Notes: generated from the sequence alone by a model not told the origin. 64,000 bases of DNA from Solirubrobacteraceae bacterium (GCA_035938935.1 DASZGH010000084.1:10731-74730); one strand, 5' to 3'. Positions 2,864 to 18,231 are shown, numbered from the stretch's first letter. Numbers and translations are program-made.

Positions 2864-3505
2864 TCAGGCGGACTGTTCGGCAAAACGCGAGTGGGCGCGC
2901 ACAACCTCCACGATCTCGACTGGCGCCTTTTGCGGCGAACCGGCATCGAACGGCGGCTCGGGGTCGTACTCGATGCCCAACTGGATCGCCTGGGCAAGCC
3001 GCTCCCCGCCGATGCGGGCGGCGAGCCCGAGCGCCATGTCGATCCCGGCGGTGACGCCCGCCGATGTGGCGAGCTTGCCGTCGAAGACGACGCGCTCGGG
3101 CACGGCGTCGACGCCGAGGGCGCGCAGCTGCTCGATCGCCTGCCAGTTGCTGGTGGCGCGTCTGCCATCGAGCAGGCCGGCGGCGGCGAGCACGAGCGAG
3201 CCGGTGCACACCGAAGTGGTCCACTTCGTCGTCTCGTGCACCTCGCGCAGCCACTCGTGCACCGGGCCGTCCTGCATCAGCGCCGACTGCCCGGGGCCGC
3301 CGGGGACGAGCACCAGCTCGGGGCTCGGCGTCTCCGCCAATCCCGCCTCCGCCATCAGCGTCAGCTGGCGCGTGTCGGTGCACACCGGGCCCGGCCGCTC
3401 GGCCACGAACGTCACGCGCGCGTCGGGCAGGCGGCTGAGCACCTCGTATGGGCCGACGGCATCTAGCGCCGTGAAGCGGTCGTACAGCAGGATCGCGATC
3501 TCCAT
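2864..3505 (-). CDS. DJ-1/PfpI family protein (isonitrile hydratase-like)
   Basis: FTALDAVGPYEVL, SVCTGS nucleophile elbow, TSAGVTAGID, IEYDPEPPF. Confidence 0.88.
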   Translation of the reverse strand: MEIAILLYDRFTALDAVGPYEVLSRLPDARVTFVAERPGPVCTDTRQLTLMAEAGLAETPSPELVLVPGGPGQSALMQDGPVHEWLREVHETTKWTTSVCTGSLVLAAAGLLDGRRATSNWQAIEQLRALGVDAVPERVVFDGKLATSAGVTAGIDMALGLAARIGGERLAQAIQLGIEYDPEPPFDAGSPQKAPVEIVEVVRAHSRFAEQSA

Positions 3506-3570
3506 TGTTCTCCGGCTCCTTGATGGTTGGATTTTGGCTTACTCGCAGCAGAACCGCGCACCGCTCCACG

Positions 3571-4581
3571 TCACGCGGCCACCGGTCCACCTCGCGCGTG
3601 CTCGCCTGGGTAAAAGCGGCGGCGGTACTCGGCCGGGCCGACCGCGAGCGCACGTAGGAAGGCGCGGCGCATCGTCTCGGGCGTACCGAAGCCACACACC
3701 CGCGCGATCTCGGCGACCGGGGCTTTGTCGTCCTCGAGCGCGCGGCGAGCGGCCTCCAGACGCACGCTCTCGACGTAGCGGGCCGGGGTCACGCCCGTCT
3801 CGGCGCGGAAGGAGCGCGCGAAGTGGCGCGGGGACATGTGCGCGCGCTCGGCCAGCGCCTCCACCGACAGGTCCCCGCCGGGGTGCTCGACGATGTGGCG
3901 GCGCACCTCGCGCAGCGGCTCGCGCACCGGCTCCTGCGCGGCGAGCGTCGCGCTGAACTGCGACTGGTTGCCGGGGCGGCGCAGGAACAGGACGAGGTGG
4001 CGCGCGATCGTCAGCGCCGCCTCGCGATCGAGGTCTTCCTCGACCAGCGCCAAGGCGAGATCCATGCCGGCCGTCACGCCCGCCGATGTCCACACGTTTC
4101 CGTCGCGCAGGTAGATCGGCTCCGGATCGACTCGCACCGCCGGATACAGGCGCGCGAGCTCGGCCGCCGAGGCCCAGTGCGTGGTGGCACGGCGGCCGTC
4201 GAGCAGGCCCGCCGCCGCCAGCAGGAACGCGCCGGTGCAGACCGAGGCCGTGCGCCGCGCTCGCCGCGAGGCGGCGGCGATCCACTCGAGCGTCGCGGGG
4301 TCGGCGCTGGCCGCGCGCGAGCCGTGGCCGCCAGCCAGGACCAGCGTGTCGATGCGTCGGGGGGCGTCGGCGAAGCCGTGGTGCGGCGTCAACTGCAGAC
4401 CACTCGACGTCTGCAGCGGCTTGCCGTCGCAGCTAACCACCACGACCTCGTAGCCACGGTCGGCGCGACCGGCCACCTCGATCAGCGTCTGCGCCGCCGA
4501 GAAGACCTCGAGCGGGCCGGTTACATCGAGGCTCTGGACCTGGGGAAAGGCGAGGATGGCGACGGTGCGCGGGGATGGCAT
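3571..4581 (-). CDS. GlxA-family transcriptional regulator (DJ-1 domain + AraC HTH)
   Basis: LDVTGPLEVF, SVCTGAF, TSAGVTAGMD, C-terminal AraC double HTH; upstream of its DJ-1 partner. Confidence 0.9.
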   Translation of the reverse strand: MPSPRTVAILAFPQVQSLDVTGPLEVFSAAQTLIEVAGRADRGYEVVVVSCDGKPLQTSSGLQLTPHHGFADAPRRIDTLVLAGGHGSRAASADPATLEWIAAASRRARRTASVCTGAFLLAAAGLLDGRRATTHWASAAELARLYPAVRVDPEPIYLRDGNVWTSAGVTAGMDLALALVEEDLDREAALTIARHLVLFLRRPGNQSQFSATLAAQEPVREPLREVRRHIVEHPGGDLSVEALAERAHMSPRHFARSFRAETGVTPARYVESVRLEAARRALEDDKAPVAEIARVCGFGTPETMRRAFLRALAVGPAEYRRRFYPGEHARGGPVAA

Positions 4582-4654
4582 GTAGCGATCATCCTCTGCA
4601 TCGATCCTGTCCGCAAGGACAGATATCCAACAATTCCTGCCAACACCAAATGGG

Positions 4655-6508
4655 TCAGCCGCGTGGCGCAGCGCTCACACGAGCGGCGCCAATCACGCCA
4701 CCCTGCGCGTCGAGCGCCTGCACGACCAGCACGGGCGGCGCGGCCGAGACCGCGATCGTCGTCTCAAAGCCCGCGCTCGAAACCGTCTTCAGAGGAGCCA
4801 ACCTGGACGCGTCCGGGCCGCCCAGCACTCGCCAGCCGGCGGTCGCGGTCGAGCCGTTCCAGCTGGCGCAGACAAGCGAGACCGCGCTAGACGAGCGGGG
4901 GGCCTGCACAGCTGTCGGGTGGGTCGCCGGGGTCGCACTCCACGTGTACTTGAACGCGGTGTAGGACTGGTACTTGGCCGGCATGCGAGCATCGAACAGC
5001 AGTTCGCCGGTCGCGCTGTATTCCGAAAGGTACGGTTCCTGCCCCCAGCCGACGAACCAGCTGCCATCCGGCAGCGGCTGGAAATCGCCCTGGCTGGGGA
5101 CGACCAGCGGCTTGGGGTGAGCGAAGCTCGAGACGAGCTTCGCTGTCATCGTCCTCGGGTCCAGGCGCAGGACGATCACGCGCGATTGCTTGTGCACCGC
5201 CGGGGTCGCGCCGTTATCGAAGAAGGAGACGGCGCCGGCGCCCTCGACGCGCAGGTCGTGCTGCCAGGCCGGGCTAGCGCCGGGACCCATCCGGAAACTC
5301 GATTCCTTGCCGCCGAGGCGCCAGACCACCTTGCCCGTGCTCGGGTCTATGAAGTAGCCCGCCCACGTGTTGCGCGAGTCGACGAGCAGGTGTTCCCCCG
5401 CTTCGGCGGCGACATTGATGTGAAACCAGTCCCACGGCGAGACTCGTGTGCCGTTCTTTTCCATCGGGACGTAGGAGTCGGACATCGACACGTGGTCCAG
5501 AGCGTGCCACTCGTAACGGACCAGGCCCGTCTTCAAGTCGACCTCCTGCAGCACGGTGTCGGCGACCGCTCCGTCGGCCGGGCCCCCGTAGTGGGAGAGG
5601 TCGCAGCGCACGGCGTCGAACACGGTGAACAGCGCCGTGCCGCGTGGGGCGATCTGGAAGGCGTGGAGGTCGGGCTCGTAGCCATTGCCGGCCCGCACGA
5701 CCTTGATCGTGCGGTAAGAGGTATCGGCGATCACGACCGCGCCATCGCGACGTCCACCGGAGACGTAGGGCTCCTGCCACCACGTCAACACCGGGCGGCC
5801 TTCGTAGCGCTGCACTCGCAGGTTGGCCGCCCTCTCCCCCTTCGGGATCGGCTTGAACCAGACCAGATGGCCCGCGCCGTCGATGATCATCGGGCCGTAC
5901 TGGCCCGGGCCCGCGTAGGGGGCGAGGAACACATACCCGGGCGCACGCGAGGGGCCGCGCGAGACCGTCACCGTCGGCGGGCGCAGGTCCGGGCGCGAGA
6001 CGAAATGCTGCAGTTCGCCGTACTTCGGCGGCGGCGGCGGCGGCGGCGGGGACTCCAGCGAGCGGCTGGTCGAGTCGCGCTCGGCGACTGTGAAACGCCA
6101 CGACACCGGCAGGCGCCGACCTGCACGCAGCAATGTGGCGCGCACGCTGACCTGCTCGCCCTGGTCGAAGAAACGGTCCGGCACGAAGCTGGCGCCATCA
6201 CCCTGCGAGTAGGCGAGCAGACGGCCCGTGTGCCGGCCGCTGCGCGAGCCGGTGACGCTCAGGTCGGCGATCTCGGTAGCCGGCACGCCCAGCAGGCTGA
6301 TCTGCGTTTCGTGCGAGGAGTCGCGCGTGTCCGGACCGGGCGAGACGGTCAGGGCGCCGCCGGCCAGCGCCGCGGAAGCGTTGAGCGTGCGCGGCGCGCA
6401 CGATGGCGCGGGATGCGCTCCGCCGGTCGAGCTGGCCACGGAGACGATCGCCACGACGGCGACGAGCGCCAGCACGCCGGCGCCAGCGCGGGCTCTGCGA
6501 GAGGGCAT
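4655..6508 (-). CDS. Secreted arylsulfotransferase (ASST)-family beta-propeller protein
   Basis: Signal peptide after MPSRR (6508); DWFHINV, WQHDLR, FFDNG, SQGDFQ motifs of ASST-like proteins. Confidence 0.75.
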   Translation of the reverse strand: MPSRRARAGAGVLALVAVVAIVSVASSTGGAHPAPSCAPRTLNASAALAGGALTVSPGPDTRDSSHETQISLLGVPATEIADLSVTGSRSGRHTGRLLAYSQGDGASFVPDRFFDQGEQVSVRATLLRAGRRLPVSWRFTVAERDSTSRSLESPPPPPPPPKYGELQHFVSRPDLRPPTVTVSRGPSRAPGYVFLAPYAGPGQYGPMIIDGAGHLVWFKPIPKGERAANLRVQRYEGRPVLTWWQEPYVSGGRRDGAVVIADTSYRTIKVVRAGNGYEPDLHAFQIAPRGTALFTVFDAVRCDLSHYGGPADGAVADTVLQEVDLKTGLVRYEWHALDHVSMSDSYVPMEKNGTRVSPWDWFHINVAAEAGEHLLVDSRNTWAGYFIDPSTGKVVWRLGGKESSFRMGPGASPAWQHDLRVEGAGAVSFFDNGATPAVHKQSRVIVLRLDPRTMTAKLVSSFAHPKPLVVPSQGDFQPLPDGSWFVGWGQEPYLSEYSATGELLFDARMPAKYQSYTAFKYTWSATPATHPTAVQAPRSSSAVSLVCASWNGSTATAGWRVLGGPDASRLAPLKTVSSAGFETTIAVSAAPPVLVVQALDAQGGVIGAARVSAAPRG

Positions 6509-6594
6509 CGGCAAGGCCGGCAAGGATACGCCGCCGCGCCGGCGGGAAGCGCCGTAGGAGACGCACGCGGCGAATCGACGGTTACCATCAACCG

Positions 6595-7533
6595 ATGGGC
6601 TTAGGCGACACCTCAGAGCGCGTCCGCAGCATCCTCGACGCGGCCGAGCGCGCCGCCCGCGAGCTGCGCGAGCGGGCCGAGCAGCGCGCCGCCGAGCGCA
6701 TCGCCGAGGCCGACCGCGCCGCCGCCAACCGCGTCGAGGCGGCAGAGCGCGAGGCCCAGGAGATCCTCGCCGACGCCCGCGCCCGGGCCGAGCAGGCACG
6801 CAACGAGGCATTGGCCGCCGTCGGCTCGATCCACGCGGAGGCAGAGAGCGCACTGTCGGGCGCCCGCGCGCAAGGCGCAGCGATCACCGTGGAGGCCGAC
6901 GAAAGCGCCCAGCGCACCGTCGAGGCCGCACGCGAGCGGGCCGAGCGCAATCTCGCTGAGGCCGGCGAGAAGGCCGAGCATGCGCTGGCAGACGCCCGCC
7001 AGCGGGCCGACCACACCATCGCCGCGGCGAACGAGCACGCCACACAGACACTCGACTCGGCGCGCGCGCAGGCCCAAGCCACCCTGGCTGCTGCCGAGGC
7101 ACGAGCCGAGAAGACGCTCAATGCCGCTGCCGAACGCGCTCAGCAGGCCACGGCGAACGCGGAGCGTGAGCTCGCCCGGCGTCAGGCCGACGCCAAGGAG
7201 AAGGCCGGCGAGACCCGCGCCAAGGCCCGCTCGGACGCCCGCGAGATCGTCGGCGAGGCGCACGCTCGCGCCCGCGAAGTCCTGCGCGACGGCGAGGAGG
7301 TCTCGCGCAACCTGCGTGACTTGTCGAGCTCGCTACGGACCAATGCCGAGCGGCTGATACGCGACGTGCGGCTGACGCACGGAAGCATGATCGCGCGCCT
7401 GGATCAGGCCGCGCCGGAGGCGGCGAAAACCAGGAGCCCAGTCGAGCAGAGCCGCAGCCCACGCCGGCGGGGCGGCGACCGCGATGAGCCCGGCGACGAT
7501 CTGGACGTGCCAGAGTTCGTTCCGCGTGGCTGA
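6595..7533 (+). CDS. Ala/Glu/Arg-rich coiled-coil protein (DivIVA/FilP-like) with acidic C-terminal peptide
   Basis: Heptad-like AE/AR repeats over about 250 aa; TACCAT -10 box 6 nt before ATG (leaderless); ends DDLDVPEFVPRG. Confidence 0.7.
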   Translation: MGLGDTSERVRSILDAAERAARELRERAEQRAAERIAEADRAAANRVEAAEREAQEILADARARAEQARNEALAAVGSIHAEAESALSGARAQGAAITVEADESAQRTVEAARERAERNLAEAGEKAEHALADARQRADHTIAAANEHATQTLDSARAQAQATLAAAEARAEKTLNAAAERAQQATANAERELARRQADAKEKAGETRAKARSDAREIVGEAHARAREVLRDGEEVSRNLRDLSSSLRTNAERLIRDVRLTHGSMIARLDQAAPEAAKTRSPVEQSRSPRRRGGDRDEPGDDLDVPEFVPRG

Positions 7534-7575
7534 TTGTCCTCGCGAAGCTCCCAGCCAACCCCCGCTCGAAGCCGA

Positions 7576-7581
7576 TAGAAT
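7576..7581 (+). promoter_or_regulatory. -10 box of tRNA-Ala promoter
   Basis: TAGAAT 10 nt upstream of mature tRNA 5' end. Confidence 0.55.
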
Positions 7582-7591
7582 CACGGTGCCT

Positions 7592-7664
<73 letters not shown>

Positions 7665-7777
7665 TCGCGGAAGGTCTTGCACGCGGTACCGTTCGAGCCT
7701 CTGAATGCAGGGAACCGCCACTCACGCGGCGTGTCAATCCGGTCGACGTTGATCGTGGATGCCGATATCCCTCGGCG

Positions 7778-8230
7778 CTATCTGTTGGCGAAGAACGACA
7801 GCAGGCAGGTGCCGAAGGTCAGTTCGCCGTCGTTATCGCGCTTGGTGCCTCCGACAGCGAAGACGATGTCCAGCCCCCCGGTCATCGTGTGACCCGCTTG
7901 GTGGATCGTCACTTTGACCGTCGAGACGCCGCCGCTGGTCTTTGGCGTGCTCTTGCCGACGATCCAGTTTGTGTAGCCGCCACGGCTCGTCGTGATCAGC
8001 TTCTGAGTGCCGGAGACGGTGATCGTGCCAGTGCCGCAACCTTCTTCGGGGCCCGGTGTCAAGCGGAGACCGGAGATCGACTTCTGGTTACGACCGACGG
8101 TGAAGCCACCCGTACTCCCGATCTTCCACTTGCCAGCCGCTGGACGCGGGGACGCCGAGCTCGCGAGCGCCACCACCGGAGCGATGACGGCGGGCGCGAG
8201 GACCATAGTGATAAGGCGTCCGGCACGCAT
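7778..8230 (-). CDS. Secreted hypothetical beta-rich protein
   Basis: N-terminal signal peptide, Gly/Thr-rich body, two Cys. Confidence 0.6.
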   Translation of the reverse strand: MRAGRLITMVLAPAVIAPVVALASSASPRPAAGKWKIGSTGGFTVGRNQKSISGLRLTPGPEEGCGTGTITVSGTQKLITTSRGGYTNWIVGKSTPKTSGGVSTVKVTIHQAGHTMTGGLDIVFAVGGTKRDNDGELTFGTCLLSFFANR

Positions 8231-8518
8231 TGGGCGAGTATATGTGGGCGGTCACGCAGTTCGCAAGGGCTGCTTGAGACACGCTGCTTACATCAGCCCG
8301 CCAGGCCAGACCCATTCCCGTCGAGCGAAATGCACTCTCCAGAACCCGCGCGTGGCGGTTCGCGTTAACTTCGGCTGGCTCCGCTGTGGCGAGCAGATGA
8401 TCGGCTTGTACTGCCGCTCCGGTGCCGAGACGTGATGAGTCGCGTGGCGTTCATTCCGGCGTAGGTCAGCCGTCTGCTGTACGGTTCGTCGGCTGGATTC
8501 GCTCTATAAGAACGAGAC

Positions 8519-9103
8519 ATGGCTACTCGAAAGACAAGCAAGAAGTCGCTGCTCAGCGGTAAGTCGCCGGTTCCTGCGGCTGTGCTAGCCGCCGTGATCG
8601 AGAGACCGGGCTACGGCTGGGACGTGGCTAATCGCGCCAAGCGTCGCTTGGGCTCGTCGTGGCGGATCGACCGGAAACACATCTACTCCTACCTAGAGCG
8701 CCTCGAAGACGACGGTCTGGTTCGGTCGCAGAGGGAGCCTGCCGGGCAGAGGGACGAAATGCGCGATGTCTACTACGCGACCGAGAAGGGCGAAGAAGCC
8801 CGCCGGGAGTGGCGCACGATGCCACTCAAACAGGGCGTCATCCCGACCGACTTGGACGTGCGGCTGCTGTTCTCGACCGAGGAGGACATCCCCGACCTCT
8901 TGGAGAGATTCGCTGAACGTGCGGAGCGGATTCTCGAAGAAATCGAGGACGCGGAAGCCGACGAGACGCCTCATGTTTCTTACCTGGCGCTGGTCATCAA
9001 CGCGCAGCGCGCGTCGGTGGAGCGGCGTTTGCGCGCTGAGCTGGAATGGCTGGAGGACACGCGGCGGGAACTTGAACTGGTGCGCGACCAGCTGAGTCGA
9101 TGA
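8519..9103 (+). CDS. PadR-family transcriptional regulator
   Basis: PGYGWDV...HIYSYLERLEDDGLV...YYATEKGEEARREW winged HTH plus helical C-terminus. Confidence 0.85.
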   Translation: MATRKTSKKSLLSGKSPVPAAVLAAVIERPGYGWDVANRAKRRLGSSWRIDRKHIYSYLERLEDDGLVRSQREPAGQRDEMRDVYYATEKGEEARREWRTMPLKQGVIPTDLDVRLLFSTEEDIPDLLERFAERAERILEEIEDAEADETPHVSYLALVINAQRASVERRLRAELEWLEDTRRELELVRDQLSR

Positions 9104-9837
9104 GCCTTCTGGCATTCCGAGGGGTGAGCAAGCGCTTCGTTGACGGTGGCGAGCAGATCACGGTCTTGGATCGCGTCTCTTTCGATATCGAGGCTGGCGA
9201 GACGGTGGGTTTGATCGCTTCGCGTCGAGGCGGCAAGACCACGCTGTTGAAGGTTGCTGCCGGCCTGATCGCGCCCGATGAGGGCAGTGTCTTATGGGAT
9301 GACGTGGAGCTGACGAGCATGAGCTGCGATGAGGTGGCGGTGACTCACCGCGAAGATGGCATCGCCTATGCCCGTGGCGACTGGCGCACTAGCCGTTCGA
9401 TGTCGGTCATGGATTTCATCACCGTCTCGCTGCATGGCGGTGTAGCGACCGGGCAAGAAGCCGAGGATCGCGCCGCCAAGACGCTTGAGCTGCTGGGCGC
9501 GGCACATCTGGCGCGCGGGCGCACGACCAAACTTGGCATGAGCGAGCGCTTGATCGTGGAGTTGGCGCGCGCGGTTGCGCACAAACCGCGCCTACTGCTG
9601 ATGGACGAGCCGGCGGTGCTGCGCAATCCCGACCACGCCAGGGAGTTCTACGAACTGCTGCGCTGCTTGCCGAAGAAGATCGGCTGTGCGCTCTTGATCG
9701 CCTCCGAAGAAATCGCGCCGCTGCGCGGCTGCAAACCGATGATGAACTTGTCTGACGGCAGGTTGACCTCGCCCACGAACAGGCGGAGGGTGATCGAGTT
9801 CCCCGGCGGTCGCTCGCCAGGGAATCGGGCGTCGTGA
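9100..9837 (+). CDS. ABC ATPase-like subunit with degenerate motifs
   Basis: Walker A ASRRGGKTT, signature LGMSE, Walker B LLLMDEP, H-loop ASEE; ATGA overlap with padR. Confidence 0.8.
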   Translation: MSLLAFRGVSKRFVDGGEQITVLDRVSFDIEAGETVGLIASRRGGKTTLLKVAAGLIAPDEGSVLWDDVELTSMSCDEVAVTHREDGIAYARGDWRTSRSMSVMDFITVSLHGGVATGQEAEDRAAKTLELLGAAHLARGRTTKLGMSERLIVELARAVAHKPRLLLMDEPAVLRNPDHAREFYELLRCLPKKIGCALLIASEEIAPLRGCKPMMNLSDGRLTSPTNRRRVIEFPGGRSPGNRAS

Positions 9838-10541
9838 GCACGCTTGAGCTACGGAGCGTTGTCAAGCGCTATGAGGGCGGTGGCGAGACGGTTCATGCGG
9901 TCGATGGGGTTTCGCTCACCGTCGAGTCGGGGGAGTTCGTGGCTCTGTACGGGCCAAGCGGCTCGGGCAAGACCACCCTCTTGATGTTGGCCGCGACGAT
10001 CAAGCTGCCTGACGCCGGCTCGGTCGTGTTCGGCAACCAGGAGCTGACCTGCCTGAGCGGCGACGAGCGCGCAAGATTCCGGCTTGAGAAGACGGGCATC
10101 GTCTTTCAGTCGTTTCACCTATCGCGTGGCGCGACCGCGCTTGAAAATGCGTGCATGAAGTTGTTTGCCACGGACGTGACGATCCGGCAAGCACGGGATA
10201 TGGCTCGGCCGTGGCTCGAGCGGTTGGGCCTTGGGGATCGTCTGGATCGCCGGCCGCCTGAAATGTCGATGGGGGAGCGTCAGCGAGTGGCTATTGCCCG
10301 AGCGCTGGCGAACAAACCGAGCATGTTGCTCGCCGATGAGCCGACCGGCAACCTCGATACCCGCCGCAGCCGGGAAGTCTTGGAGCTGCTGAGAGAGATT
10401 TGTGTCGAGGAGCGCATACCGGTCGTGCTGGTGACACATGACCCGCAGGCCACGGCCTATGTCAATCGCGTGCATACGCTGTGCGACGGCAAGCTCACGG
10501 ACGGCCTAGACCTCGATCTGCAAGTCCCGGTCTTGGGATGA
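9834..10541 (+). CDS. ABC transporter ATP-binding protein (LolD/MacB type)
   Basis: GPSGSGKTT, MSMGERQRVAIARAL, LLADEPTGNLD, VTHD. Confidence 0.92.
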   Translation: MSTLELRSVVKRYEGGGETVHAVDGVSLTVESGEFVALYGPSGSGKTTLLMLAATIKLPDAGSVVFGNQELTCLSGDERARFRLEKTGIVFQSFHLSRGATALENACMKLFATDVTIRQARDMARPWLERLGLGDRLDRRPPEMSMGERQRVAIARALANKPSMLLADEPTGNLDTRRSREVLELLREICVEERIPVVLVTHDPQATAYVNRVHTLCDGKLTDGLDLDLQVPVLG

Positions 10542-13111
10542 GACGCGCACCGCGCATCCCTACACGACCGCGCATCCTGGGGATGACGCCGGCCGGTTTG
10601 TACGCGCTCTACCGAGTGCATTGGCACACCAATCGCGGCTCCGAGCTGATGGCCGGCGCCGGCATCGCCATTGGCGTGTCGCTGGTGTTCGGCGTCCTGG
10701 TCGCCAACAGCAGCATCCTGGGATCGACTCGCGAAGCGATCAACGCCGTCAACGGTTCGGCGTCGCTTGCCCTTGTTGCGCGCTCGCCGGGGGGAGTCGA
10801 TCAGCAGCTCGCGCAGCGTGCCTCGGAACTGCCAGGCGTACAGACGGCCGTGCCGATCCTGCGCCAGAGCGCCGTCATCGAGGGGCCAAGAGGACACATG
10901 CTGGCGCAGCTCGTCGGCGTCAGTCCGCTCATCGTCAGCTTGCGTGGGGCGGCGGTCAAAGACCTTGGTGCTGGCGCGCGGCTGCTGGAAAACGGGGTCG
11001 GGTTGCCGTCGAGCGTGGCGGAAGCGGTCGGCGTCCAAGCCGAAGACAACGCGCGGCTGCTCGTCAACGGCAGCCCACATCTGCTTCGCGTGCAAGCAGT
11101 CCTCGACGCAGGCGCTATCGGTTCGCTGGCGTCGAGCCGGGTGGTCGTGATGCTCCTGGGCAATGCGCAGACGCTTGCCGGTATGCCGGGGCGCGTGACC
11201 CAAGTGCTCGTCAAAACGTATCCGGGTCGCGATAAGCAAGTCGAAGCTGAGTTGCAGCACTTGGCGGGAGGACGAGTCAATGTCGAGCCGGCCAACCACG
11301 AAATTGCGTTGGCCGAAACCGCCCTGACACCGACGAATCAGTCAACGAGCCTGTTTGCGGCGATCTCACTGATGGTTGGCTTTCTGCTGGCGTTCAACGC
11401 CATGCTGCTGACCATGCCCGACCGCCGCTGGCACATGGCGGAACTGCGCGAACAGACGTATACGTCGCGTCAAATCGTTGCCATCCTTGGTTCCCAGGCG
11501 CTTGTCCTGGGGATCGCGGCCTCCGTTGTCGGTGTGCTGGTCGGCTATGTCCTTGCCCGCACCGTCTTTGGGGCGGTGCCGAGCTACTTGGCGACGACGT
11601 TCCCGATCACCGGGCGTCAGTTAGTCAGCATCGTGCCGGTGATCGTCGCCTTCGCCTGCGGGGTGCTGGCGGCCTTCATGGCGGCGATGTCGCCGATCTT
11701 GGACTTGCGCAAGTACCGCGACGTTGACGCGATGATGAGCGAGCCGGGCGAGCCGGGCCAAAACATCACTGGCGAGATAGTGCGCGGGGTGGCTCTGCTG
11801 GGCGTGGCGATCGTGGTCGCCGCTACGCTCATGGTGCTGCTGGACTCGGGGTTGACCATCCTGGGCGGAGTGGCGCTCGCGCTCGCCACGCCTTGTTTCG
11901 TTCCCCTACTTTTTCGTGCAGCAACCGGCGTGCTCGGCTACGTCGCCCACAATTACCATGGGAAAATGTTGGCGGTGGCGGATATCGAATTGAAAGCGAC
12001 CGCCACTCGCTCGGTGGCGCTGGCGTGTATCACGGCGCTGGCGATCTACGGCTCCATCGCCGTCGGCGGGGCGCGCAGCGACCTGATCCACGGACTCGAC
12101 CAGGGCATATCGCAGCAGTGGCATTCGGCGGCGATTTGGATAACGCCGAACGAAAACATTCACGACACTGATAGCTTCGAGGCGCCTGGGGTGGCGTCGG
12201 TGGTTTCACGCACGGCCGGGATCGCGGCAGTCAGCGCCCGGCAGGGCTCCTTCTTGGACGTTGGCTCACACCGGCTTTGGGTACGCGCTGCACCCCCTGG
12301 CAACCCGGCGATGATCCTCTCTAGCCAACTTGAAGATGGCGCGCTCGCTCGCGCAGAGGCTCTGATGCGCCGACCCGGCTGGGCGACCGTATCGAGCGGC
12401 TTTGCTTCCGAACACGGGTTGCGGGTTGGTAGGTCGTTCACGTTGCCGACGCCATCGGGCGTCGTGCCGTTTCGTGTCGCGGCGATCACCACGAACATCG
12501 GATGGCCGCCTGGCACGATCACGCTCAACACCACGGACTACAGCCGCTATTGGCAGAGCGCCAACCCGACAACCCTAGCCGTCGATGTGAGGCCAGGCAC
12601 CATCCCCGCGGCGGGCGTGCGGGCCATCCGTCAGGCGCTCGGACCACGGACGGGGCTACGGGTGCAGACGGCCGACGAACGAATCGCCGAGGTGGAGGCG
12701 ACAGCGCGGCAGGGTCTGAGCATCCTCAACGACGTGTCCAACCTGCTGCTGCTGATCTCGGCCCTGGCGCTCGCCGCTGCGCTGACGGCGACGATCTATC
12801 AGAGACGCGGCCGGCTCGCCTCGCTCAAGGCTCAGGGCTATGTGCGCTGGCAGCTTTGGCGCGGCGTGCTGCTTGAGAGTGCCGTCGTGCTCGGGATCGG
12901 CTGTCTGGACGGCGCGATTCTCGGGTTGTACGGACACGCACTAGCAGACCACTATCTGCGCACAAATACAGGCTTTCCGGCACCGTTCAACATCGGCCTG
13001 GCGCAAATTGCGCTCACGCTGGTGATCGTCGCCGGAGCATCGCTGGTGGTCATCTCAATTCCGGGCTATTCGGCCGCTGGCATTGCCCCCGAGCTGAGCT
13101 TTCAGGAATGA
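10538..13111 (+). CDS. FtsX/MacB-like ABC permease (two repeats)
   Basis: Two sets of TM + large extracytoplasmic domain + 3 TM; ATGA overlap with the ATPase stop. Confidence 0.88.
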   Translation: MRRAPRIPTRPRILGMTPAGLYALYRVHWHTNRGSELMAGAGIAIGVSLVFGVLVANSSILGSTREAINAVNGSASLALVARSPGGVDQQLAQRASELPGVQTAVPILRQSAVIEGPRGHMLAQLVGVSPLIVSLRGAAVKDLGAGARLLENGVGLPSSVAEAVGVQAEDNARLLVNGSPHLLRVQAVLDAGAIGSLASSRVVVMLLGNAQTLAGMPGRVTQVLVKTYPGRDKQVEAELQHLAGGRVNVEPANHEIALAETALTPTNQSTSLFAAISLMVGFLLAFNAMLLTMPDRRWHMAELREQTYTSRQIVAILGSQALVLGIAASVVGVLVGYVLARTVFGAVPSYLATTFPITGRQLVSIVPVIVAFACGVLAAFMAAMSPILDLRKYRDVDAMMSEPGEPGQNITGEIVRGVALLGVAIVVAATLMVLLDSGLTILGGVALALATPCFVPLLFRAATGVLGYVAHNYHGKMLAVADIELKATATRSVALACITALAIYGSIAVGGARSDLIHGLDQGISQQWHSAAIWITPNENIHDTDSFEAPGVASVVSRTAGIAAVSARQGSFLDVGSHRLWVRAAPPGNPAMILSSQLEDGALARAEALMRRPGWATVSSGFASEHGLRVGRSFTLPTPSGVVPFRVAAITTNIGWPPGTITLNTTDYSRYWQSANPTTLAVDVRPGTIPAAGVRAIRQALGPRTGLRVQTADERIAEVEATARQGLSILNDVSNLLLLISALALAAALTATIYQRRGRLASLKAQGYVRWQLWRGVLLESAVVLGIGCLDGAILGLYGHALADHYLRTNTGFPAPFNIGLAQIALTLVIVAGASLVVISIPGYSAAGIAPELSFQE

Positions 13112-13159
13112 CCAGCCGAGCCGTGCGGCAGGCCGGGTACACACGCCACGCTGTTCGCT

Positions 13160-14248
13160 GTGAGATCTTCAACCGCGCGCAGTGTCGTCGCCTTCGTCTC
13201 GGCTGCCCGCCGTTACTGGCTTGGTGTCTTTCCGGTCGTCCGGCACGAGATTCGCCGGCTACACCGCTGTGCGCGTGGCATCCCCGACCCGGCGCTGCGC
13301 GCGCTGGCCTTCGACGCGCAGAAACGCAAGTGGGCAAGCCTTGAGGGCGCGGCGGCGTTCGCTGTCTTCACTCCCCGCTTAGGCCGCTTCTCCCTTGCCC
13401 GCCTGCTGGTTGACCTCCAAGGTGTCTTCGACTACGCCGACACGCTCATGGAGCAACCGAGTCGCTTTCCGGTCGCCAATGCTCGCCAGTTGCACAACGC
13501 CTTTGTTGTCGCCCTGCAACCCGAGCTGCCGCACGCTGACTACTACCGGCATCACGCGCAGCGTGACGACGGCGGCTACCTCGTCGAGCTGATCGACGGC
13601 TGCCGGGCGGCGATCTGCGCCCTGCCGTCCTACGCCGTCGTGGCAGATGTCGTGCTGCGTCATGCCTGGCGCATCGTCTTCTACCAGAGTCGGATCAACC
13701 TGGCGACCGCTGGCGATCATCCGGCGCTCGCCCGCTGGGCCAGCAAACAGCCGGCCGGCTCGCAGCTCAAGTGGTGGGAGCTGGGCGCGGCATGCGGCTC
13801 GTCGCTGGCGATCTTCGCGCACCTGGCGGCTGCCTCCGATCCAACCTTGACGCAGCGGGAGGTTGAGGCCATCGAGGCGCTGTACTGGCCGTGGGCCGAG
13901 GCGCTGCACATCATGCTCGACAGCCTCATCGACCGCGCCGAAGACTGCGCGACTGACCAGCTCAACCTACTCGACTACTACGCCTCGCAGGATGAAATGG
14001 TCGAACGGCTCGGCCTGTTGGCCTGCGAGATGGTCAGGCGGGCGGAGGCCGTGCCGCCGCATCATCGACTGATCCTGGCGGCAATGGTGGCGCTGTACCT
14101 TTCCGACGAGCAGGCGTGGACTCCCTCGGCTCGTCCGGCTACCGAACGCATCTTGGAAGCCACTGGCACGTTTGCCCGCCCGGCGCTGTTGCTACTGCGT
14201 CTGCGGCGCATGGCGCTCAGGTCCGAGCGAAATCTGATCGCGGCATAG
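13160..14248 (+). CDS. Tetraprenyl-beta-curcumene synthase (YtpB/DUF2600)-family terpene synthase
   Basis: FDYADTLMEQP acidic motif, DDGGYLVEL, WWELGAACGSSL, LHIMLDSLIDRAED, QLNLLDYY. Confidence 0.8.
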   Translation: MRSSTARSVVAFVSAARRYWLGVFPVVRHEIRRLHRCARGIPDPALRALAFDAQKRKWASLEGAAAFAVFTPRLGRFSLARLLVDLQGVFDYADTLMEQPSRFPVANARQLHNAFVVALQPELPHADYYRHHAQRDDGGYLVELIDGCRAAICALPSYAVVADVVLRHAWRIVFYQSRINLATAGDHPALARWASKQPAGSQLKWWELGAACGSSLAIFAHLAAASDPTLTQREVEAIEALYWPWAEALHIMLDSLIDRAEDCATDQLNLLDYYASQDEMVERLGLLACEMVRRAEAVPPHHRLILAAMVALYLSDEQAWTPSARPATERILEATGTFARPALLLLRLRRMALRSERNLIAA

Positions 14249-14307
14249 CCGCGTTGGGACTAGGGGCAGCGTAGCCTTTCCAAAGACTGAGACGCACTCC
14301 ATCATGC

Positions 14308-14583
14308 GTGGGCATGACGACAGATGGAGACAGCGAGAAACCGTCAGTCCGCCTCGGCCTTGAGGCGCTAGCGCAGTTCGAGAGCGCCGACGTCGAGCTC
14401 GACGGAACCGCCATCGGGCGACTGACGGGCGTGTCCTGCTCCACGGCGCGGGACTGCCTGGCTGACCTCTCGCGCTTTGGGTACGTCGTCGCCGGGGAGG
14501 ACGGGGGATATCGGCTGGTGGGGGACTCGCCGGGCGCACACGCTCGCCGTGATGGGGGCAGCTCGGCCGGCGCGTCGGCGTGA
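14308..14583 (+). CDS. Stand-alone IclR-type winged HTH protein
   Basis: SVRLGLEALAQF...IGRLTGVSCSTARDCLADLSRFGYV...GYRL. Confidence 0.65.
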   Translation: MGMTTDGDSEKPSVRLGLEALAQFESADVELDGTAIGRLTGVSCSTARDCLADLSRFGYVVAGEDGGYRLVGDSPGAHARRDGGSSAGASA

Positions 14584-15404
14584 GCCGAGCACCCTCTCAC
14601 AGCGGCAACGGTGGCAAGCGACAACCGCCTCATTCGACGCTGCTACGGCAGCCGCAGCCGTCGAAGTCATTGCAGGCGGCGATGGCGATTCCGCTCGTGT
14701 TCGCCCGACCCAGCCGAGCGTGCGGCGCGGCGGAAATGGCCGATCTCATCCGCCTCAGACCGGGCCGCGTCTTCGCGCGGCTCGGTCAGCCGCACCTATC
14801 CAGCGACGTGCTGGCGACGCGCCTTGCCGATCCCGGTGGCTCGTTGACTGCTGCGATGCAGAGGACGGAGCCGGTCCGAGAAGTCCTCGAGGAGCTATTC
14901 GAGGCGACCGGCTACACGGTCTGTATGGGCGCGCTCAATGACCGCAGCGTCGCCTACCTTCATCGACTCTACGGGCGTGACCGCGCTCAGCGTTTCATCA
15001 ATCAGGAAGTGAGTCTTGGCTCGCGCGCCCCGCTCTACTGCACGGCGCTCGGCAAGGCGCTGCTGGCGAGCTTGTCCGAGCCGTGGCGTCGCCGTCTACT
15101 GTCGCAAATCGACTTCATTCCGCAGGGGCCGCGCTCGTATGCCGCGGCGGATGAGCTGCTGGCCGAGCTGGCGACTTTGGATGACCAGGAGCCGGTCGTC
15201 AGCGATGAGGAGTACATCGCCGGCGCGCGCTCTATCGCGGTGTGCGTGCAGCGAACGCGTGACGAGCAGCCCATCGCCATTGACGTGACTGTGCCCGTCG
15301 AGGACTTCACGGTTCAAGAGCTGGTTGAGATGGTCGGGCCAAGTGTGAAGTACGCCGCGAACCGCATTGCGCAGATCGAGGCCAAAGGGCTACAGACCGA
15401 CTAG
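14580..15404 (+). CDS. IclR-family regulator with divergent HTH
   Basis: C-terminal effector domain GSRAPLYCTALGKALLA...DEEYIAGARSIAV; weak N-terminal SKSLQAAMAI...GAAEMAD. Confidence 0.8.
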   Translation: MSRAPSHSGNGGKRQPPHSTLLRQPQPSKSLQAAMAIPLVFARPSRACGAAEMADLIRLRPGRVFARLGQPHLSSDVLATRLADPGGSLTAAMQRTEPVREVLEELFEATGYTVCMGALNDRSVAYLHRLYGRDRAQRFINQEVSLGSRAPLYCTALGKALLASLSEPWRRRLLSQIDFIPQGPRSYAAADELLAELATLDDQEPVVSDEEYIAGARSIAVCVQRTRDEQPIAIDVTVPVEDFTVQELVEMVGPSVKYAANRIAQIEAKGLQTD

Positions 15405-15468
15405 CCGCGCCGGAACTAACGTCGGCATAGCCTTTTCACCAGCTTTCATCTGAGGCACGATCCAGCGC

Positions 15469-15966
15469 GTGACGAGCAAGGGGGACGCACCGAAAACGAT
15501 CGAGGCGCTTGACGCGGACGTGCTTCGCGCCCGCCGATCCGTAATCCTTGCCAAGCGGCGGGCGCGCAAACTCGCCAAACCGCTCTACATCAACACTAAG
15601 GCCGCGTGGCAAGGCGGGGTGGCCGGGCTAGCGTATGTCAGTGCCTCGCTCGGCGACCGCACAGCCCTGGTCGCCTGCGGTGGCCAGACCGAGGCGGAAC
15701 ACCATGCGCTGCTCATGGCGATGGTGGACGCCGAGGAATGCGAGCTGCCCGGCAATATCGAGTTCCGCTTGGACTCAGGCACCCTGGCCGATCTCGACGC
15801 CGGCCGGACACCCGAGCTGGTCGAGCTACGCAAACGGGTGATCGACATGCTTGCCCGCCATCCAGCGTGGAGATTGGAGTGGGTTGAGCGACGACGGAAC
15901 TGGATCGCCAGTGCTCCGGCACGACGGACGCTGAGTCAATGGGAGAACCACGCGGATGGGAGCTAA
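15469..15966 (+). CDS. RNase H-like fold protein, probably degenerate
   Basis: YINTKA...GLAYV, TEAEHHAL, EFRLDS, LEWVERRRN pattern parallels RNase HI. Confidence 0.55.
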   Translation: MTSKGDAPKTIEALDADVLRARRSVILAKRRARKLAKPLYINTKAAWQGGVAGLAYVSASLGDRTALVACGGQTEAEHHALLMAMVDAEECELPGNIEFRLDSGTLADLDAGRTPELVELRKRVIDMLARHPAWRLEWVERRRNWIASAPARRTLSQWENHADGS

Positions 15967-16030
15967 GGCTTCCTCGCTGCTCGACCTGGACGATGAGCAG
16001 AAACATCTTTCGCTAGTGTTCGATACCAGA

Positions 16031-16597
16031 ATGCGCCGCGCGCTCAGAACGGTTGCCGCAAGCCTCTTCGTGCTGAGCCTCGCCGGGGTGGCCGTAGCCG
16101 CCGAAACCGTCTCGGTCCACGTTCAACGCCGACTCTCAGTACGCAAGAACGTTCATGTCACGTTCCACGCACGGTCCCTGCCCGAAGGCGGCTACTACTA
16201 CGCGGTGATCGTGCTGAGGCCCTACAAGAAATACACGCAAACTCTGCCGCCACCCTGCGCGACGTCAAGCGACATGCAGCGCACGGACTACGGCTACCCA
16301 CAACCGAGCGGAGAAGTGGCACTGGCGCTCACGCCGGCCAAGTCCCGCACTGGGCATTGGTGTCCAGGCGGCCACTATCTCGGCGGGATCTACGCGGTTC
16401 CCCATGCGCCGCCTTGCGAAAGTGCCTATCCCTGTCACAGCGAACCGTACAAAGAACCCTGCGCTGGCGTTGCGCCCGGTTGCGTCGAGGGCGTCGTGGC
16501 GCGTCCAAAGGAATGGGCGTACCCCGAGGGCCTGCCGGGGCCACGAGTAAGTGGAACGACCATAGTCGGGTGCTTCGCCGTCAACTTCCATCCATAA
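16031..16597 (+). CDS. Secreted Cys/Pro-rich hypothetical protein
   Basis: Signal peptide MRRALRTVAASLFVLSLAGVAVAA; 7 Cys in mature part. Confidence 0.6.
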   Translation: MRRALRTVAASLFVLSLAGVAVAAETVSVHVQRRLSVRKNVHVTFHARSLPEGGYYYAVIVLRPYKKYTQTLPPPCATSSDMQRTDYGYPQPSGEVALALTPAKSRTGHWCPGGHYLGGIYAVPHAPPCESAYPCHSEPYKEPCAGVAPGCVEGVVARPKEWAYPEGLPGPRVSGTTIVGCFAVNFHP

Positions 16598-16622
16598 CCC
16601 CCCGGTTGGGTATGCTGCACCC

Positions 16623-16979
16623 GTGGCTTCCCCATCTCCGGTCATAACCAACCGCGAACGCCAACCCGGCGGCTGCCAGACCCCGCTCGTCGAGCCGGAC
16701 CTCTCAGCCGCCGAGGCCGCCCACCTGGCAACCCTCGCAAAGGCGCTGGCCGACCCAACCCGCCTACGGATCGTCGACGCTCTGCGCAAGGCCACCCCCG
16801 AGGCCGTCTGCCAGTGCGAGCTGCTGCCGCTGTTCGGCATCTCACAAGCGGCGCTTGCCAAACACCTGAAGGTGCTGATCGGCACCGGCCTGATCGGCGT
16901 CGAGCGGCGAGGGCTGTGGACCTACTACTTCGTCTCCGGAGAACCCCGCTGGGGGGAGCTTAGAGCGTGGCTGGACTGA
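16623..16979 (+). CDS. arsR: ArsR/SmtB-family repressor
   Basis: KALADPTRLRI, CQCEL, SKHLKVL-like helix, ERRGLWTYY; first gene of ars operon. Confidence 0.85.
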   Translation: MASPSPVITNRERQPGGCQTPLVEPDLSAAEAAHLATLAKALADPTRLRIVDALRKATPEAVCQCELLPLFGISQAALAKHLKVLIGTGLIGVERRGLWTYYFVSGEPRWGELRAWLD

Positions 16980-17019
16980 GCCCCACCGGCCGGATCGAAA
17001 CGCGCCGGAGCCACCTACG

Positions 17020-17760
17020 GTGACGCAGGCGCCCGACCTAGTGCGCCGCGCCGGCGCCGAGGCGCTCGGCGCCTTCGCGCTCGTGTTCGCCGGCTGCGGA
17101 GCAATCGTCACCGACGCCCACACCCACGGCACCCTCGGCGCGGTGGGCGTCAGTCTCGTGTTCGGGCTGGTGATCCTCGCCGCGATCGCCGCACTCGGGC
17201 ACGTCTCCGGGGCCCACTTCAATCCCGCCGTCACGCTCAGCTTCTTCCTCACACGCCACCTCCCCGGCCGCGATGCGCTCGCCTACCTGGCCGGACAGCT
17301 GGCCGGCGCCGTGCTCGCCGCGCTGCTGCTGTGGGCGATCTGGCCTGCGCAACCGGCCGACCTCGGCGCGACGGTGCCGAGCATCGCGGCCGGCCGCGCC
17401 GTGATTTTGGAGTGCGTGATGAGCGGGCTGTTGATGCTCGTGATCATCAGCGTCGCCACCGACACCCGCGCCGTCGGCGCTCCGGCCGCGCTCGCGATCG
17501 GGGCGACGATCGCGCTCGACGCGCTGTTCGGCGGACCGCTGACGGGAGCCTCGATGAACCCCGCGCGCTCGTTCGCGCCCGCGCTTGTGTCCGGCCAGTG
17601 GCGAGACTTCTGGGTGTACCTCGCCGGCCCGCTCATAGGCGCTCCCCTCGGCGCGCTGGCATACCAGCTCGTACGCGGCGAGCACCCTGGCCCGGCGCCA
17701 GCCGTGAGCGTCTCTGCGCCCGCGGCGAGCGTCTCGGTGTGCGCCGCCGAGGAAGCGTAG
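17020..17760 (+). CDS. MIP/aquaporin channel (arsenite efflux, AqpS-like)
   Basis: SGAHFNPAVT and SMNPARS NPA motifs; lies between arsR and arsC. Confidence 0.9.
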   Translation: MTQAPDLVRRAGAEALGAFALVFAGCGAIVTDAHTHGTLGAVGVSLVFGLVILAAIAALGHVSGAHFNPAVTLSFFLTRHLPGRDALAYLAGQLAGAVLAALLLWAIWPAQPADLGATVPSIAAGRAVILECVMSGLLMLVIISVATDTRAVGAPAALAIGATIALDALFGGPLTGASMNPARSFAPALVSGQWRDFWVYLAGPLIGAPLGALAYQLVRGEHPGPAPAVSVSAPAASVSVCAAEEA

Positions 17761-18231
17761 ATGGCCACCGTGCTGTTCGTCTGCCTGCACAACGCGGGAC
17801 GCTCGCAGATGAGCGCCGCGCTGCTGGAGCGCGAGTCCGCGGGTCGCCACATCGCTCTCTCCGCGGGCACGACACCCGCCGAGCGGGTCCACCCCGAGGT
17901 CGTCGAGGTGATGCGCGAGCTGGACATCGACCTGTCCGAGCGCCGCCCGCAACTGCTCACGCGCGAGCTTGCCGAGCAGGCGAACGTAGTTGTGACGATG
18001 GGCTGTGGAGACGAGTGCCCTTACATACCGGGCAAGCTCTACCTCGACTGGGACCTACCCGACCCGAAGGGCCGTCCGCTTGCCGAGGTTCGAGCGACCC
18101 GCGAGCAGATCGCGTCCAGAGTCCGCGCCCTCGTCAGTGAACTCGACGCGCCTGGGCGAACGTCACTAGTCGCGCCCGGTCCTCGTCCCACAGCTTCAGC
18201 GCAACAGCGCGGAGGCCGTCCCACAAGCTGA
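17761..18231 (+). CDS. arsC: Arsenate reductase, LMW-PTP fold
   Basis: CLHNAGRSQM P-loop, GCGDECP, DWDLPDP. Confidence 0.88.
   Translation: MATVLFVCLHNAGRSQMSAALLERESAGRHIALSAGTTPAERVHPEVVEVMRELDIDLSERRPQLLTRELAEQANVVVTMGCGDECPYIPGKLYLDWDLPDPKGRPLAEVRATREQIASRVRALVSELDAPGRTSLVAPGPRPTASAQQRGGRPTS

Follow-up and report, generated by a model that had tools for sequence, protein, structure and literature searches.

The closest described relatives of the system considered here are a family of bacterial terpene synthases on the one hand and a group of ATP-binding cassette (ABC) transporters that act on the membrane on the other. The synthases, which carry the DUF2600 domain, have been characterised in Bacillaceae alone, where the enzyme BalTS defines class IB terpene synthases through two Asp-rich sequence motifs, one being DYLDNLxD and the other DY(F,L,W)IDxxED, and where mutating any motif aspartate of BalTS abolishes activity. 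The natural products of the characterised class IB enzymes are C25-C35 hydrocarbons whose role in these bacteria is unclear; tetraprenyl-curcumene, the product of YtpB in Bacillus subtilis, is found in the outer layers of the spore, a precedent for a surface location, and in Bacillus it also sits in membranes. Among the transporters, YbbAP of Escherichia coli has been proposed to pull hydrophobic compounds out of the inner membrane and present them to TesA, the hydrolase that is its partner, and a first structure and tentative function for YbbP-type members of type VII ABC transporters came in 2025. The subject of this report is a stretch of 64,000 nt from a Solirubrobacteraceae bacterium (the window, to whose positions all coordinates of the cassette refer), in which a DUF2600 synthase gene adjoins genes for an FtsX-type ABC transporter; the names of homologues also assign the organism to Solirubrobacteraceae. 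Five genes of this cassette, for a PadR-family regulator, two ABC ATPases (ABC1 and ABC2), a permease and the synthase, are read here as a make-and-extract operon for a large, very hydrophobic terpene, autoregulated by PadR, a reading to which we give a probability of roughly 0.5. Its make-export part is strongly supported; gene content, motif conservation, fold class, recurrence and the co-inheritance of synthase and transporter in several gene orders are established.

The likeness of the window synthase to YtpB (BsuTS) and BalTS extends from the shared DUF2600 family and counterparts of both Asp-rich motifs to what is likely the same pool of heptaprenyl diphosphate. It departs from them in that its first motif ends in E, not D, and its second has S in place of Y. 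The surroundings are also unlike: in Bacillaceae ytpB follows the alpha/beta hydrolase gene ytpA and is under sigma-M control, with no PadR gene or FtsX-type transporter beside it.

On the transporter side, the cassette resembles E. coli YbbAP-TesA in having a permease of 10 transmembrane (TM) helices with two periplasmic-type domains, paired with a lipid-acting enzyme. The sequence identity to YbbAP is, however, only about 13%, and two distinct ATPases, one of them degenerate, take the place of the YbbA homodimer. TesA is a periplasmic hydrolase that acts after extraction, whereas a cytoplasmic terpene synthase would here act before it, and neither the operon nor the flanking DNA contains a gene for an SGNH or alpha/beta hydrolase. 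The host presumably belongs to a monoderm actinobacterial lineage, unlike E. coli. BceAB is a structural relative, likewise composed of an FtsX-family 10-TM permease and a cytoplasmic ATPase, and in B. subtilis a genetic link of it to ytpB and heptaprenyl diphosphate has been described. BceAB differs in having one extracellular domain between TM7 and TM8 and in working with BceRS, as against the two extracytoplasmic domains, PadR and two ATPases of the window, where no histidine kinase or response regulator was found near the cassette.

DevBCA, a MacB-type system for heterocyst glycolipid, and HpnN, an RND/MMPL-type system for hopanoids, are lipid exporters encoded with biosynthetic genes. The cassette would share with them the logic of a lipid made in the cytoplasm and moved outward by a dedicated transporter beside the synthase; window ABC2 scores 170 bits on the DevA model, and one related locus uses an MMPL transporter. 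In contrast to both, no membrane-fusion or outer-membrane partner is present in the operon or flanks, the permease is duplicated within a single chain, and the expected cargo is a head-to-tail large terpene rather than a glycolipid or hopanoid.

In the library searched, full texts on DUF2600/YtpB, class IB and large-terpene synthases, sesquarterpenes and Solirubrobacterales yielded no description of a DUF2600-ABC cassette. The original prediction, made from the window sequence alone, had proposed a seven-gene make-export-sense system for a terpenoid and knew of no characterised example. The parts are known, and their association is unreported and very well supported, while the function is a matter of inference. 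Through the cassette the transporter gains a candidate cargo and the terpene a candidate destination, in soil actinobacteria that are abundant and barely cultivated.

Recurrence of the five-gene core

A DUF2600 profile scan of one genome per GTDB species gave 331 relatives, and the best 80 of these 331 loci were examined; all are from Solirubrobacterales, with DUF2600 identities of 89-44%. Searched by tblastn with the window proteins, nearly every locus of sufficient length has PadR-ABC1-ABC2-FtsX-DUF2600 in the same order, on the same strand and with the same spacing. Across Solirubrobacterales genomes and metagenomes this complete arrangement, type A, occurs in 77 of 113 DUF2600 loci. Of the others, 6 are truncated forms resembling type A, 13 are of type B or B-like (11 complete and 2 partial), 1 is of the MMPL type, and 16 are too short or broken by assembly. 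All loci were gathered starting from DUF2600, and linkage is counted from the synthase side. The five-gene arrangement is far beyond chance, and this survey of DUF2600 neighbourhoods bears out the expectation that the gene order would recur, with the synthase and the FtsX-type ABC transporter as the pair in closest linkage.

The recurrent unit is smaller than the seven genes first proposed. The core PadR-ABC1-ABC2-FtsX-DUF2600 stands, and the IclR regulator and the 91-aa helix-turn-helix (HTH) protein, which complete the block in the window, fall outside it on account of their distribution (52 of 80 loci, with identity correlations of r 0.48-0.60, and about 14 loci, respectively). When the open reading frames (ORFs) of the 80 loci were clustered, no other gene was found at a fixed position except IclR, the small HTH and a pair of small secreted or anchored proteins, which is divergent from PadR in about 13 loci.

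The five core genes have also evolved together. Their pairwise-identity matrices correlate with r of 0.82-0.95, and nine genomes carry two cassettes that have diverged deeply in all five genes (DUF2600 42-53% and PadR 28-67% identical). Whichever of the five genes is compared, the nearest relatives of a given copy in other genomes belong for the most part to the same loci or to close relatives of these, from which it follows that whole cassettes were duplicated long ago and inherited as units. In three loci the first cassette is accompanied, no more than 10 kb away and on the opposite strand, by a very divergent ABC-FtsX-DUF2600 cassette with a synthase identity of 31-35% (L005, 15547-19874; L018, 12909-20244; L094, 2-7385; all on the minus strand), and some genomes therefore have three or more such systems.

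Alternative architectures of the synthase-transporter pair

More distant relatives show which features of the cassette are constrained. A library at 50% identity contained 1376 DUF2600 representatives at E <= 0.001, eight of which were chosen for context and seven looked up separately, the eighth being a second protein of one cluster. Four of these distant representatives lie in the same cassette. One follows genes for an MMPL transporter, a large secreted protein and a pair of small proteins anchored in the membrane, and two others have a homologue of this large secreted protein upstream. In the MMPL locus (L087, 868-9128) a 914-aa secreted protein, the 1017-aa MMPL transporter, the two anchored proteins and DUF2600 share one operon, and the block is inserted between rpsM and the map-adk-secY genes of the ribosomal cluster.

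A metagenome scan seeded with distant DUF2600 proteins gave 27 loci, most of which are of a second architecture, type B, with the order DUF2600-ABC-FtsX-TetR. In full, it consists of two large secreted proteins, 179-aa and 261-aa secreted or anchored proteins, DUF2600, an ABC ATPase, an FtsX permease and a TetR or winged HTH (wHTH) protein; the permease is duplicated, and there is a single, canonical ATPase with an overlapping start. Homologous elements of type B also occur in Solirubrobacterales genomes, and in one locus (L106) a PadR-ABC-ABC-FtsX operon is divergent from an operon of the 179-aa protein, the 261-aa protein and DUF2600. Type B is seen in L101 (34-15329) and also in L095, L096, L102-L104 and L107-L111. 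The large secreted ORFs of L101 are of about 1240 and 1160 aa, one with NHL/fn3-like traces; proteins of 190, 261 and 287 aa that have no Pfam match lie 5' of DUF2600, and the regulator, of 342 aa, joins TetR_N to a MarR/IclR-like wHTH at its C terminus. An apparent DUF2600::ABC fusion in L083 was set aside; the best explanation is a fault of gene calling or assembly in a locus that has the type B order DUF2600-ABC.

Among the 113 loci the synthase has an adjoining transporter wherever there is enough flank. The invariant is the pairing of the synthase with a lipid-type transporter, around which gene order, ATPase number and regulator family vary. A role in cargo handling is indicated because the pair survives rearrangement, because MMPL once replaces the ABC transporter and because type B recruits secreted proteins, which could serve as acceptors.

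Gene content and organization of the window cassette

The seven co-oriented ORFs of the block at 8519-15404, with four stop/start overlaps and two short gaps, are found in the sequence exactly where the original prediction had placed them (Table 1). The overlaps read ATGA at 9100, GTGA at 9834, ATGA at 10538 and GTGA at 14580, and the gaps are of 48 nt between the permease and DUF2600 genes (13112-13159) and of about 59 nt between DUF2600 and the 91-aa ORF (14249-14307). No credible plus-strand terminator was seen within 8519-15404, and these overlaps and short gaps, together with the lack of an internal terminator, argue for a single transcript. An Rfam scan of 7000-17000 returned tRNA only, with no riboswitch or leader RNA, and exact contigs from one small metatranscriptome cover the 3' end of ABC2, 14331-14714 and 16093-16620. 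Public gene calling places the start of the permease 15 codons downstream, giving 842 aa; since most orthologues are of 857 aa and the N-terminal extension is kept, 10538 is the likelier start. Pfam searches of the window proteins found no prenyl-diphosphate synthase or tailoring enzyme, an absence already remarked on for the operon, which holds for the neighbouring genes as well.

Table 1. Positions of the cassette genes and of the elements immediately upstream
Feature	Position	Strand	Size	Remarks
tRNA-Ala(GGC) gene	7591-7666	+		just 5' of the cassette
Conserved promoter and candidate operator block	8470-8518	+		directly 5' of padR; -10-like TAnnnT (TACGGT), GTTCG...GGATTCG elements, short leader
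PadR-family winged-helix regulator	8519-9103	+	194 aa	first gene; PF03551, 45.6 bits (cut-off 27)
ABC1, degenerate ABC ATPase	9100-9837	+	245 aa	ABC_tran, 69.6 bits
ABC2, canonical LolD/MacB/DevA-like ABC ATPase	9834-10541	+	235 aa	ABC_tran, 111.8 bits
Duplicated FtsX/MacB-type permease	10538-13111	+	857 aa	two FtsX stretches (Pfam)
DUF2600 / class IB large-terpene synthase (YtpB/BalTS family)	13160-14248	+	362 aa	PF10776, 246 bits
Stand-alone IclR-type winged-HTH ORF	14308-14583	+	91 aa	HTH_IclR, 21 bits, below the 22-bit cut-off
IclR-family regulator	14580-15404	+	274 aa	IclR_C, 85 bits; PcaR/PcaU model, 85 bits

The class IB terpene synthase

The profile of the synthase matches the BalTS structure 5yo8 with an E value of 2.2e-62 over residues 22-320, in keeping with homology to the BalTS alpha-domain. 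The first Asp-rich motif is DYADTLME (residues 91-98) and the second is DSLIDRAED (254-262), in which all acidic positions are kept; both are conserved over the 80 loci. On sequence grounds the enzyme is thus placed in the class IB terpene synthase family, save that motif 1 ends in Glu, and the YtpB-type identity first suggested for it is supported by this homology and by the catalytic motifs. Neither a TM helix nor a signal peptide is predicted in it, and the synthase is predicted to be cytoplasmic. Its identity to Bacillaceae proteins is 28-31%. The main quinone of Solirubrobacter is MK-7(H4), a menaquinone-7, so that heptaprenyl diphosphate should be available, and supply from core metabolism fits with an operon that has no prenyl synthase of its own.

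A plasmid search for relatives of the synthase returned Bacillaceae records only. On a Bacillus mycoides plasmid (L082) a PAP2-family phosphatase gene, of the undecaprenyl diphosphate phosphatase BcrC family, lies 1.5 kb from ytpA-ytpB (3855-4385, minus strand), which may be a further link of polyprenyl diphosphate metabolism to the synthase.

The ABC transporter

The two ATPases have parted ways in their catalytic residues. ABC1 retains Walker B (DEPA), but its Walker A (ASRRGGKTT) and signature (LGMSE) are degenerate, and it has lost the Gln of the Q-loop and carries Ser for the His of the H-loop (IASEE), a degeneracy identical in 77 of 77 orthologues, whereas the catalytic motifs of ABC2 are all canonical and all conserved. 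Against NCBIfam models ABC2 scores 201 bits for LolD, 170 for DevA and 164 for the N-terminal part of MacB, each under the equivalog cut-off. A degenerate ABC1 with a canonical ABC2 implies an obligately asymmetric pair of nucleotide-binding domains on a pseudo-heterodimeric, single-chain permease.

Hydropathy and an AlphaFold2 model (pLDDT, the predicted local distance difference test score, 76.7; pTM, the predicted template modelling score, 0.68) give the permease 10 TM helices and extracytoplasmic MacB_PCD-like domains at about residues 56-271 and 512-735; PF12704 (MacB_PCD) is annotated on its orthologues. The best folds in the Protein Data Bank are E. coli YbbP of YbbAP (9ge6 and 9ge7, E values of 3e-19 and 7e-19, TM-scores of 0.49-0.60 at full length), followed by LolC/E, BceB, MacB, HrtB and YtrF. 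With FtsX modules of four TM helices, an extracytoplasmic domain between TM1 and TM2, and separate nucleotide-binding domains, the modelled transporter is assigned to the type VII (MacB/FtsX) ABC systems and has the architecture of YbbP. The earlier description of a MacB/FtsX-type exporter was correct as to family; pumping of cargo across the bilayer is not what such systems do, as they extract from the membrane or the periplasmic side by mechanotransmission.

PadR and the upstream region

The padR gene has the same relative position in 77 loci and is the fastest-evolving gene of the core, with a mean pairwise identity of 0.44 that becomes 0.28-0.67 between paralogous cassettes of one genome. 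In an alignment of 16 upstream regions, conservation is confined to the last ~45 nt before padR, which narrows the candidate operator to 8470-8518. These ~45 nt contain GATTCCGA-type elements together with inverted or direct repeats specific to sub-clades; the pattern of the block is present in 32 of 76 loci, with variants in most others, and the 7-mers ATTCCGA, TGCTGTA, AGGATTC and GTATTGT are enriched 40-80 fold over the background of the loci. A palindrome search for the classic PadR inverted-repeat operator found no motif common to all loci, and 8470-8518 is put forward as a putative operator of PadR.

The regulator is swapped between architectures: type A cassettes have PadR, and those of type B use a TetR/wHTH protein. 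Since the family is interchangeable, sensing is best seen as the generic function of a local repressor. The make-export half of the system first proposed is upheld by the recurrent linkage of synthase and transporter, while its sensing half is plausible for PadR alone.

IclR and the 91-aa HTH protein

In 52 of 80 loci the same strand carries an IclR gene at most ~900 nt downstream (the ORF clustering finds its cluster downstream in 54), and its identity matrix correlates with those of the core genes at r 0.48-0.60, while the 91-aa HTH is present as an ORF in about 14 close loci. IclR is a facultative, loosely coupled neighbour, and the 91-aa HTH is an accessory specific to a sub-clade. In the 274-aa ORF, whose N-terminal HTH is degenerate, only IclR_C was matched, with no Pfam match to HTH_IclR at E <= 0.01, and the 91-aa ORF resembles the N-terminal HTH of the IclRs of other loci (30-36% identity, best E value 1e-4) and not that of its own neighbour. 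A split or frameshifted IclR gene was considered and rejected: a gap of some 100 residues would separate the HTH ORF from IclR_C, and full-length IclRs elsewhere match the 274-aa ORF along about 96% of its length. The two proteins may divide the labour between a DNA-binding and a ligand-binding partner. The metatranscriptome contig at 14331-14714, with a depth of 43 against 2-3 elsewhere, spans their junction.

Proposed function and alternative explanations

The make-and-extract reading can be set out as a sequence of steps. DUF2600 would ionise a long all-trans polyprenyl diphosphate drawn from core metabolism, most likely heptaprenyl diphosphate (C35), the side-chain precursor of menaquinone-7, or a similar C25-C35 substrate, and the hydrocarbon product would partition into the cytoplasmic membrane. 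The type VII ABC machine would then lift the terpene or a derivative from the outer leaflet by ATP-driven mechanotransmission and deliver it to the cell envelope, the surface or an extracytoplasmic acceptor. PadR would repress the operon at the conserved site overlapping promoter and leader until released by a hydrophobic ligand or by membrane stress, and in the sub-clade of the window IclR and the small wHTH would be optional extra regulators. The chain length of the substrate, the product, the direction and cargo of transport, and the PadR operator and its ligand are the points in this scheme that we infer.

Several observations weigh against this scheme. The first Asp-rich motif of the synthase keeps its first two Asp residues and has Glu for the last, a Glu that is invariant in aligned relatives, and the Ser that replaces Tyr in the second is likewise invariant in the clade. 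None of the few contigs of the one small metatranscriptome dataset covers the synthase gene. Type VII ABC systems have diverse jobs, among them lipoprotein release, cell division and antibiotic target protection, and the fold class for this reason does not fix the cargo, nor does the operon in the clade of the window encode an obvious extracytoplasmic acceptor. Finally, the Bacillus literature links ytpB to envelope stress and bacitracin sensitivity and not to export, which suits the defence rival described below just as well.

A bolder form of the make-and-extract reading, which is possible but should be held as tentative, is that the synthase and the YbbP-like transporter form a dedicated and perhaps physically coupled machine that takes a C35-type terpene hydrocarbon from the cytoplasmic side of the membrane to the surface or to secreted carrier proteins in Thermoleophilia. 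If so, such a synthase-extractor machine would be the first export pathway for a terpene hydrocarbon, and for a YbbP-type transporter in a bacterium presumed to be monoderm it would supply the first physiological cargo. The radiation of the system into several paralogous cassettes in one genome, with a private repressor for each, suggests a family of distinct surface or communication lipids, and the cassette points to unexplored large-terpene lipids on the surface of soil bacteria that tolerate desiccation and ultraviolet light. It could also decide between the views that the product of YtpB matters and that removal of its substrate does.

The connection of ytpB with heptaprenyl diphosphate, envelope stress and bacitracin, which the original prediction left out, gives rise to a serious rival. 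Here the cassette would be a module of envelope-stress or antibiotic defence, in which the transporter protects the lipid II and polyprenyl phosphate cycle from a compound that attacks the cell wall, by target protection as in BceAB or in the manner of YtrBCDEF, a system induced by cell-wall antibiotics, while the synthase drains heptaprenyl diphosphate, a bacitracin-binding analogue of undecaprenyl diphosphate, and/or makes a membrane-stiffening terpenoid, and PadR is a repressor released by stress. In B. subtilis, ytpAB is reported to be induced by sigma-M upon bacitracin or cefuroxime, and loss of ytpB to lead to accumulation of heptaprenyl diphosphate and to bacitracin sensitivity, with a genetic interaction with the FtsX-type transporter BceAB; an inhibition of BceAB by heptaprenyl diphosphate, proposed in this connection, was not confirmed by experiment. 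The permease counts BceB and YtrF among its structural relatives, ABC cassettes controlled by PadR or TetR are typical resistance modules, and several paralogous cassettes per genome would suit different antibiotics. The permease, however, has the two extracytoplasmic domains of YbbP and not the single TM7-8 domain of BceB, and a two-component system of the BceRS type was not found adjoining the cassette. A resistance pump would be expected often to stand without a synthase, yet in these DUF2600-seeded loci the transporter is beside the synthase wherever the flank suffices, and the MMPL swap in one lineage and the secreted proteins in others fit cargo handling better. Defence is less probable than the make-and-extract reading but is to be taken seriously.

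The version originally favoured is improbable. In it the product would be a diffusible terpenoid signal that leaves through the ABC transporter and is recognised by PadR and/or IclR, which closes an autoregulatory, quorum-like circuit. This version shares the strong linkage of synthase and transporter, and the fast divergence of PadR among paralogous cassettes (28-67% identical) is what private pairs of ligand and operator would be expected to show. PadR, TetR and IclR families commonly bind small hydrophobic ligands. Of the four prenyl diphosphates offered to BalTS in vitro, the shortest was converted as well. The C25-C35 hydrocarbons made by class IB enzymes are nonetheless essentially insoluble, and products so hydrophobic make a diffusible signal chemically unlikely; no tailoring enzyme that would add polarity was found in the operon or flanks. 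A third of the loci lack IclR, whose co-variation with the core is poor, the small HTH is confined to a single sub-clade, regulators of different families can replace one another, and characterised type VII transporters pass their cargo to envelope partners and not into the medium.

A role in salvage or quality control, with the order of events reversed, is very unlikely. The transporter would here take long-chain polyprenyl (di)phosphates that are stray or damaged, or else a lipid-linked intermediate, out of the membrane, and DUF2600 would remove the diphosphate, leaving the hydrocarbon as waste. This would recall the presentation of extracted membrane compounds to a degradative enzyme by YbbAP, and in Bacillus the harm of a ytpB deletion is reported to come through build-up of substrate and not loss of product. 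The enzyme, however, is predicted to be cytoplasmic, and since delivery by type VII transporters is outward, the two would face opposite sides of the membrane; nor does a housekeeping role readily account for so deep a diversification, with several cassettes in one genome.

Flanking genes, composition and mobility

Upstream of the cassette are genes for leucyl-tRNA synthetase, DJ-1/PfpI proteins, an arylsulfotransferase-like protein and tRNA-Ala, and the downstream side has an RNase H-like ORF, an ars operon and genes for a desaturase and a helicase. These flanks are unrelated to isoprenoid metabolism and are not syntenic even where the synthase of a relative is 89% identical, for which reasons the cassette is regarded as self-contained. 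The region 8000-16600 has a guanine-plus-cytosine (GC) content of 0.65 and a third-position value (GC3) of 0.76-0.80, as against 0.695 and 0.85-0.92 in the rest of the window; the dip is marked in this genome, and its mean across loci is 0.9 points. The neighbouring tRNA gene, the low GC and the non-syntenic flanks suggest a mobile or recently acquired block. A genomic island at tRNA-Ala was considered and rejected, as the window has no repeat of the tRNA 3' end and no integrase, and adjacency to the tRNA is not conserved.

Some of the neighbouring genes deserve mention in their own right. Divergent from padR, a 150-aa secreted protein is encoded at 7778-8230 on the minus strand, where a conserved 179-aa secreted protein stands in about 13 other type A loci; it is without a homologue in the 80 loci, and its similarity to the 179-aa protein is not significant (E value 7). 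Further upstream, 2864-6853 on the minus strand encodes a DJ-1/PfpI protein, a DJ-1/PfpI-AraC fusion regulator and then a 732-aa arylsulfotransferase (ASST)-like protein. The plus strand at 16623-18231 carries an arsenic-resistance-like operon, made up of an ArsR-type HTH, an MIP/aquaglyceroporin and a low-molecular-weight phosphatase of the ArsC type. IclR is followed by a 165-aa RNase H-like ORF (15469-15966, plus strand; RVT_3, 25 bits), and about 11-12 of the closest loci have this ORF at the corresponding position.

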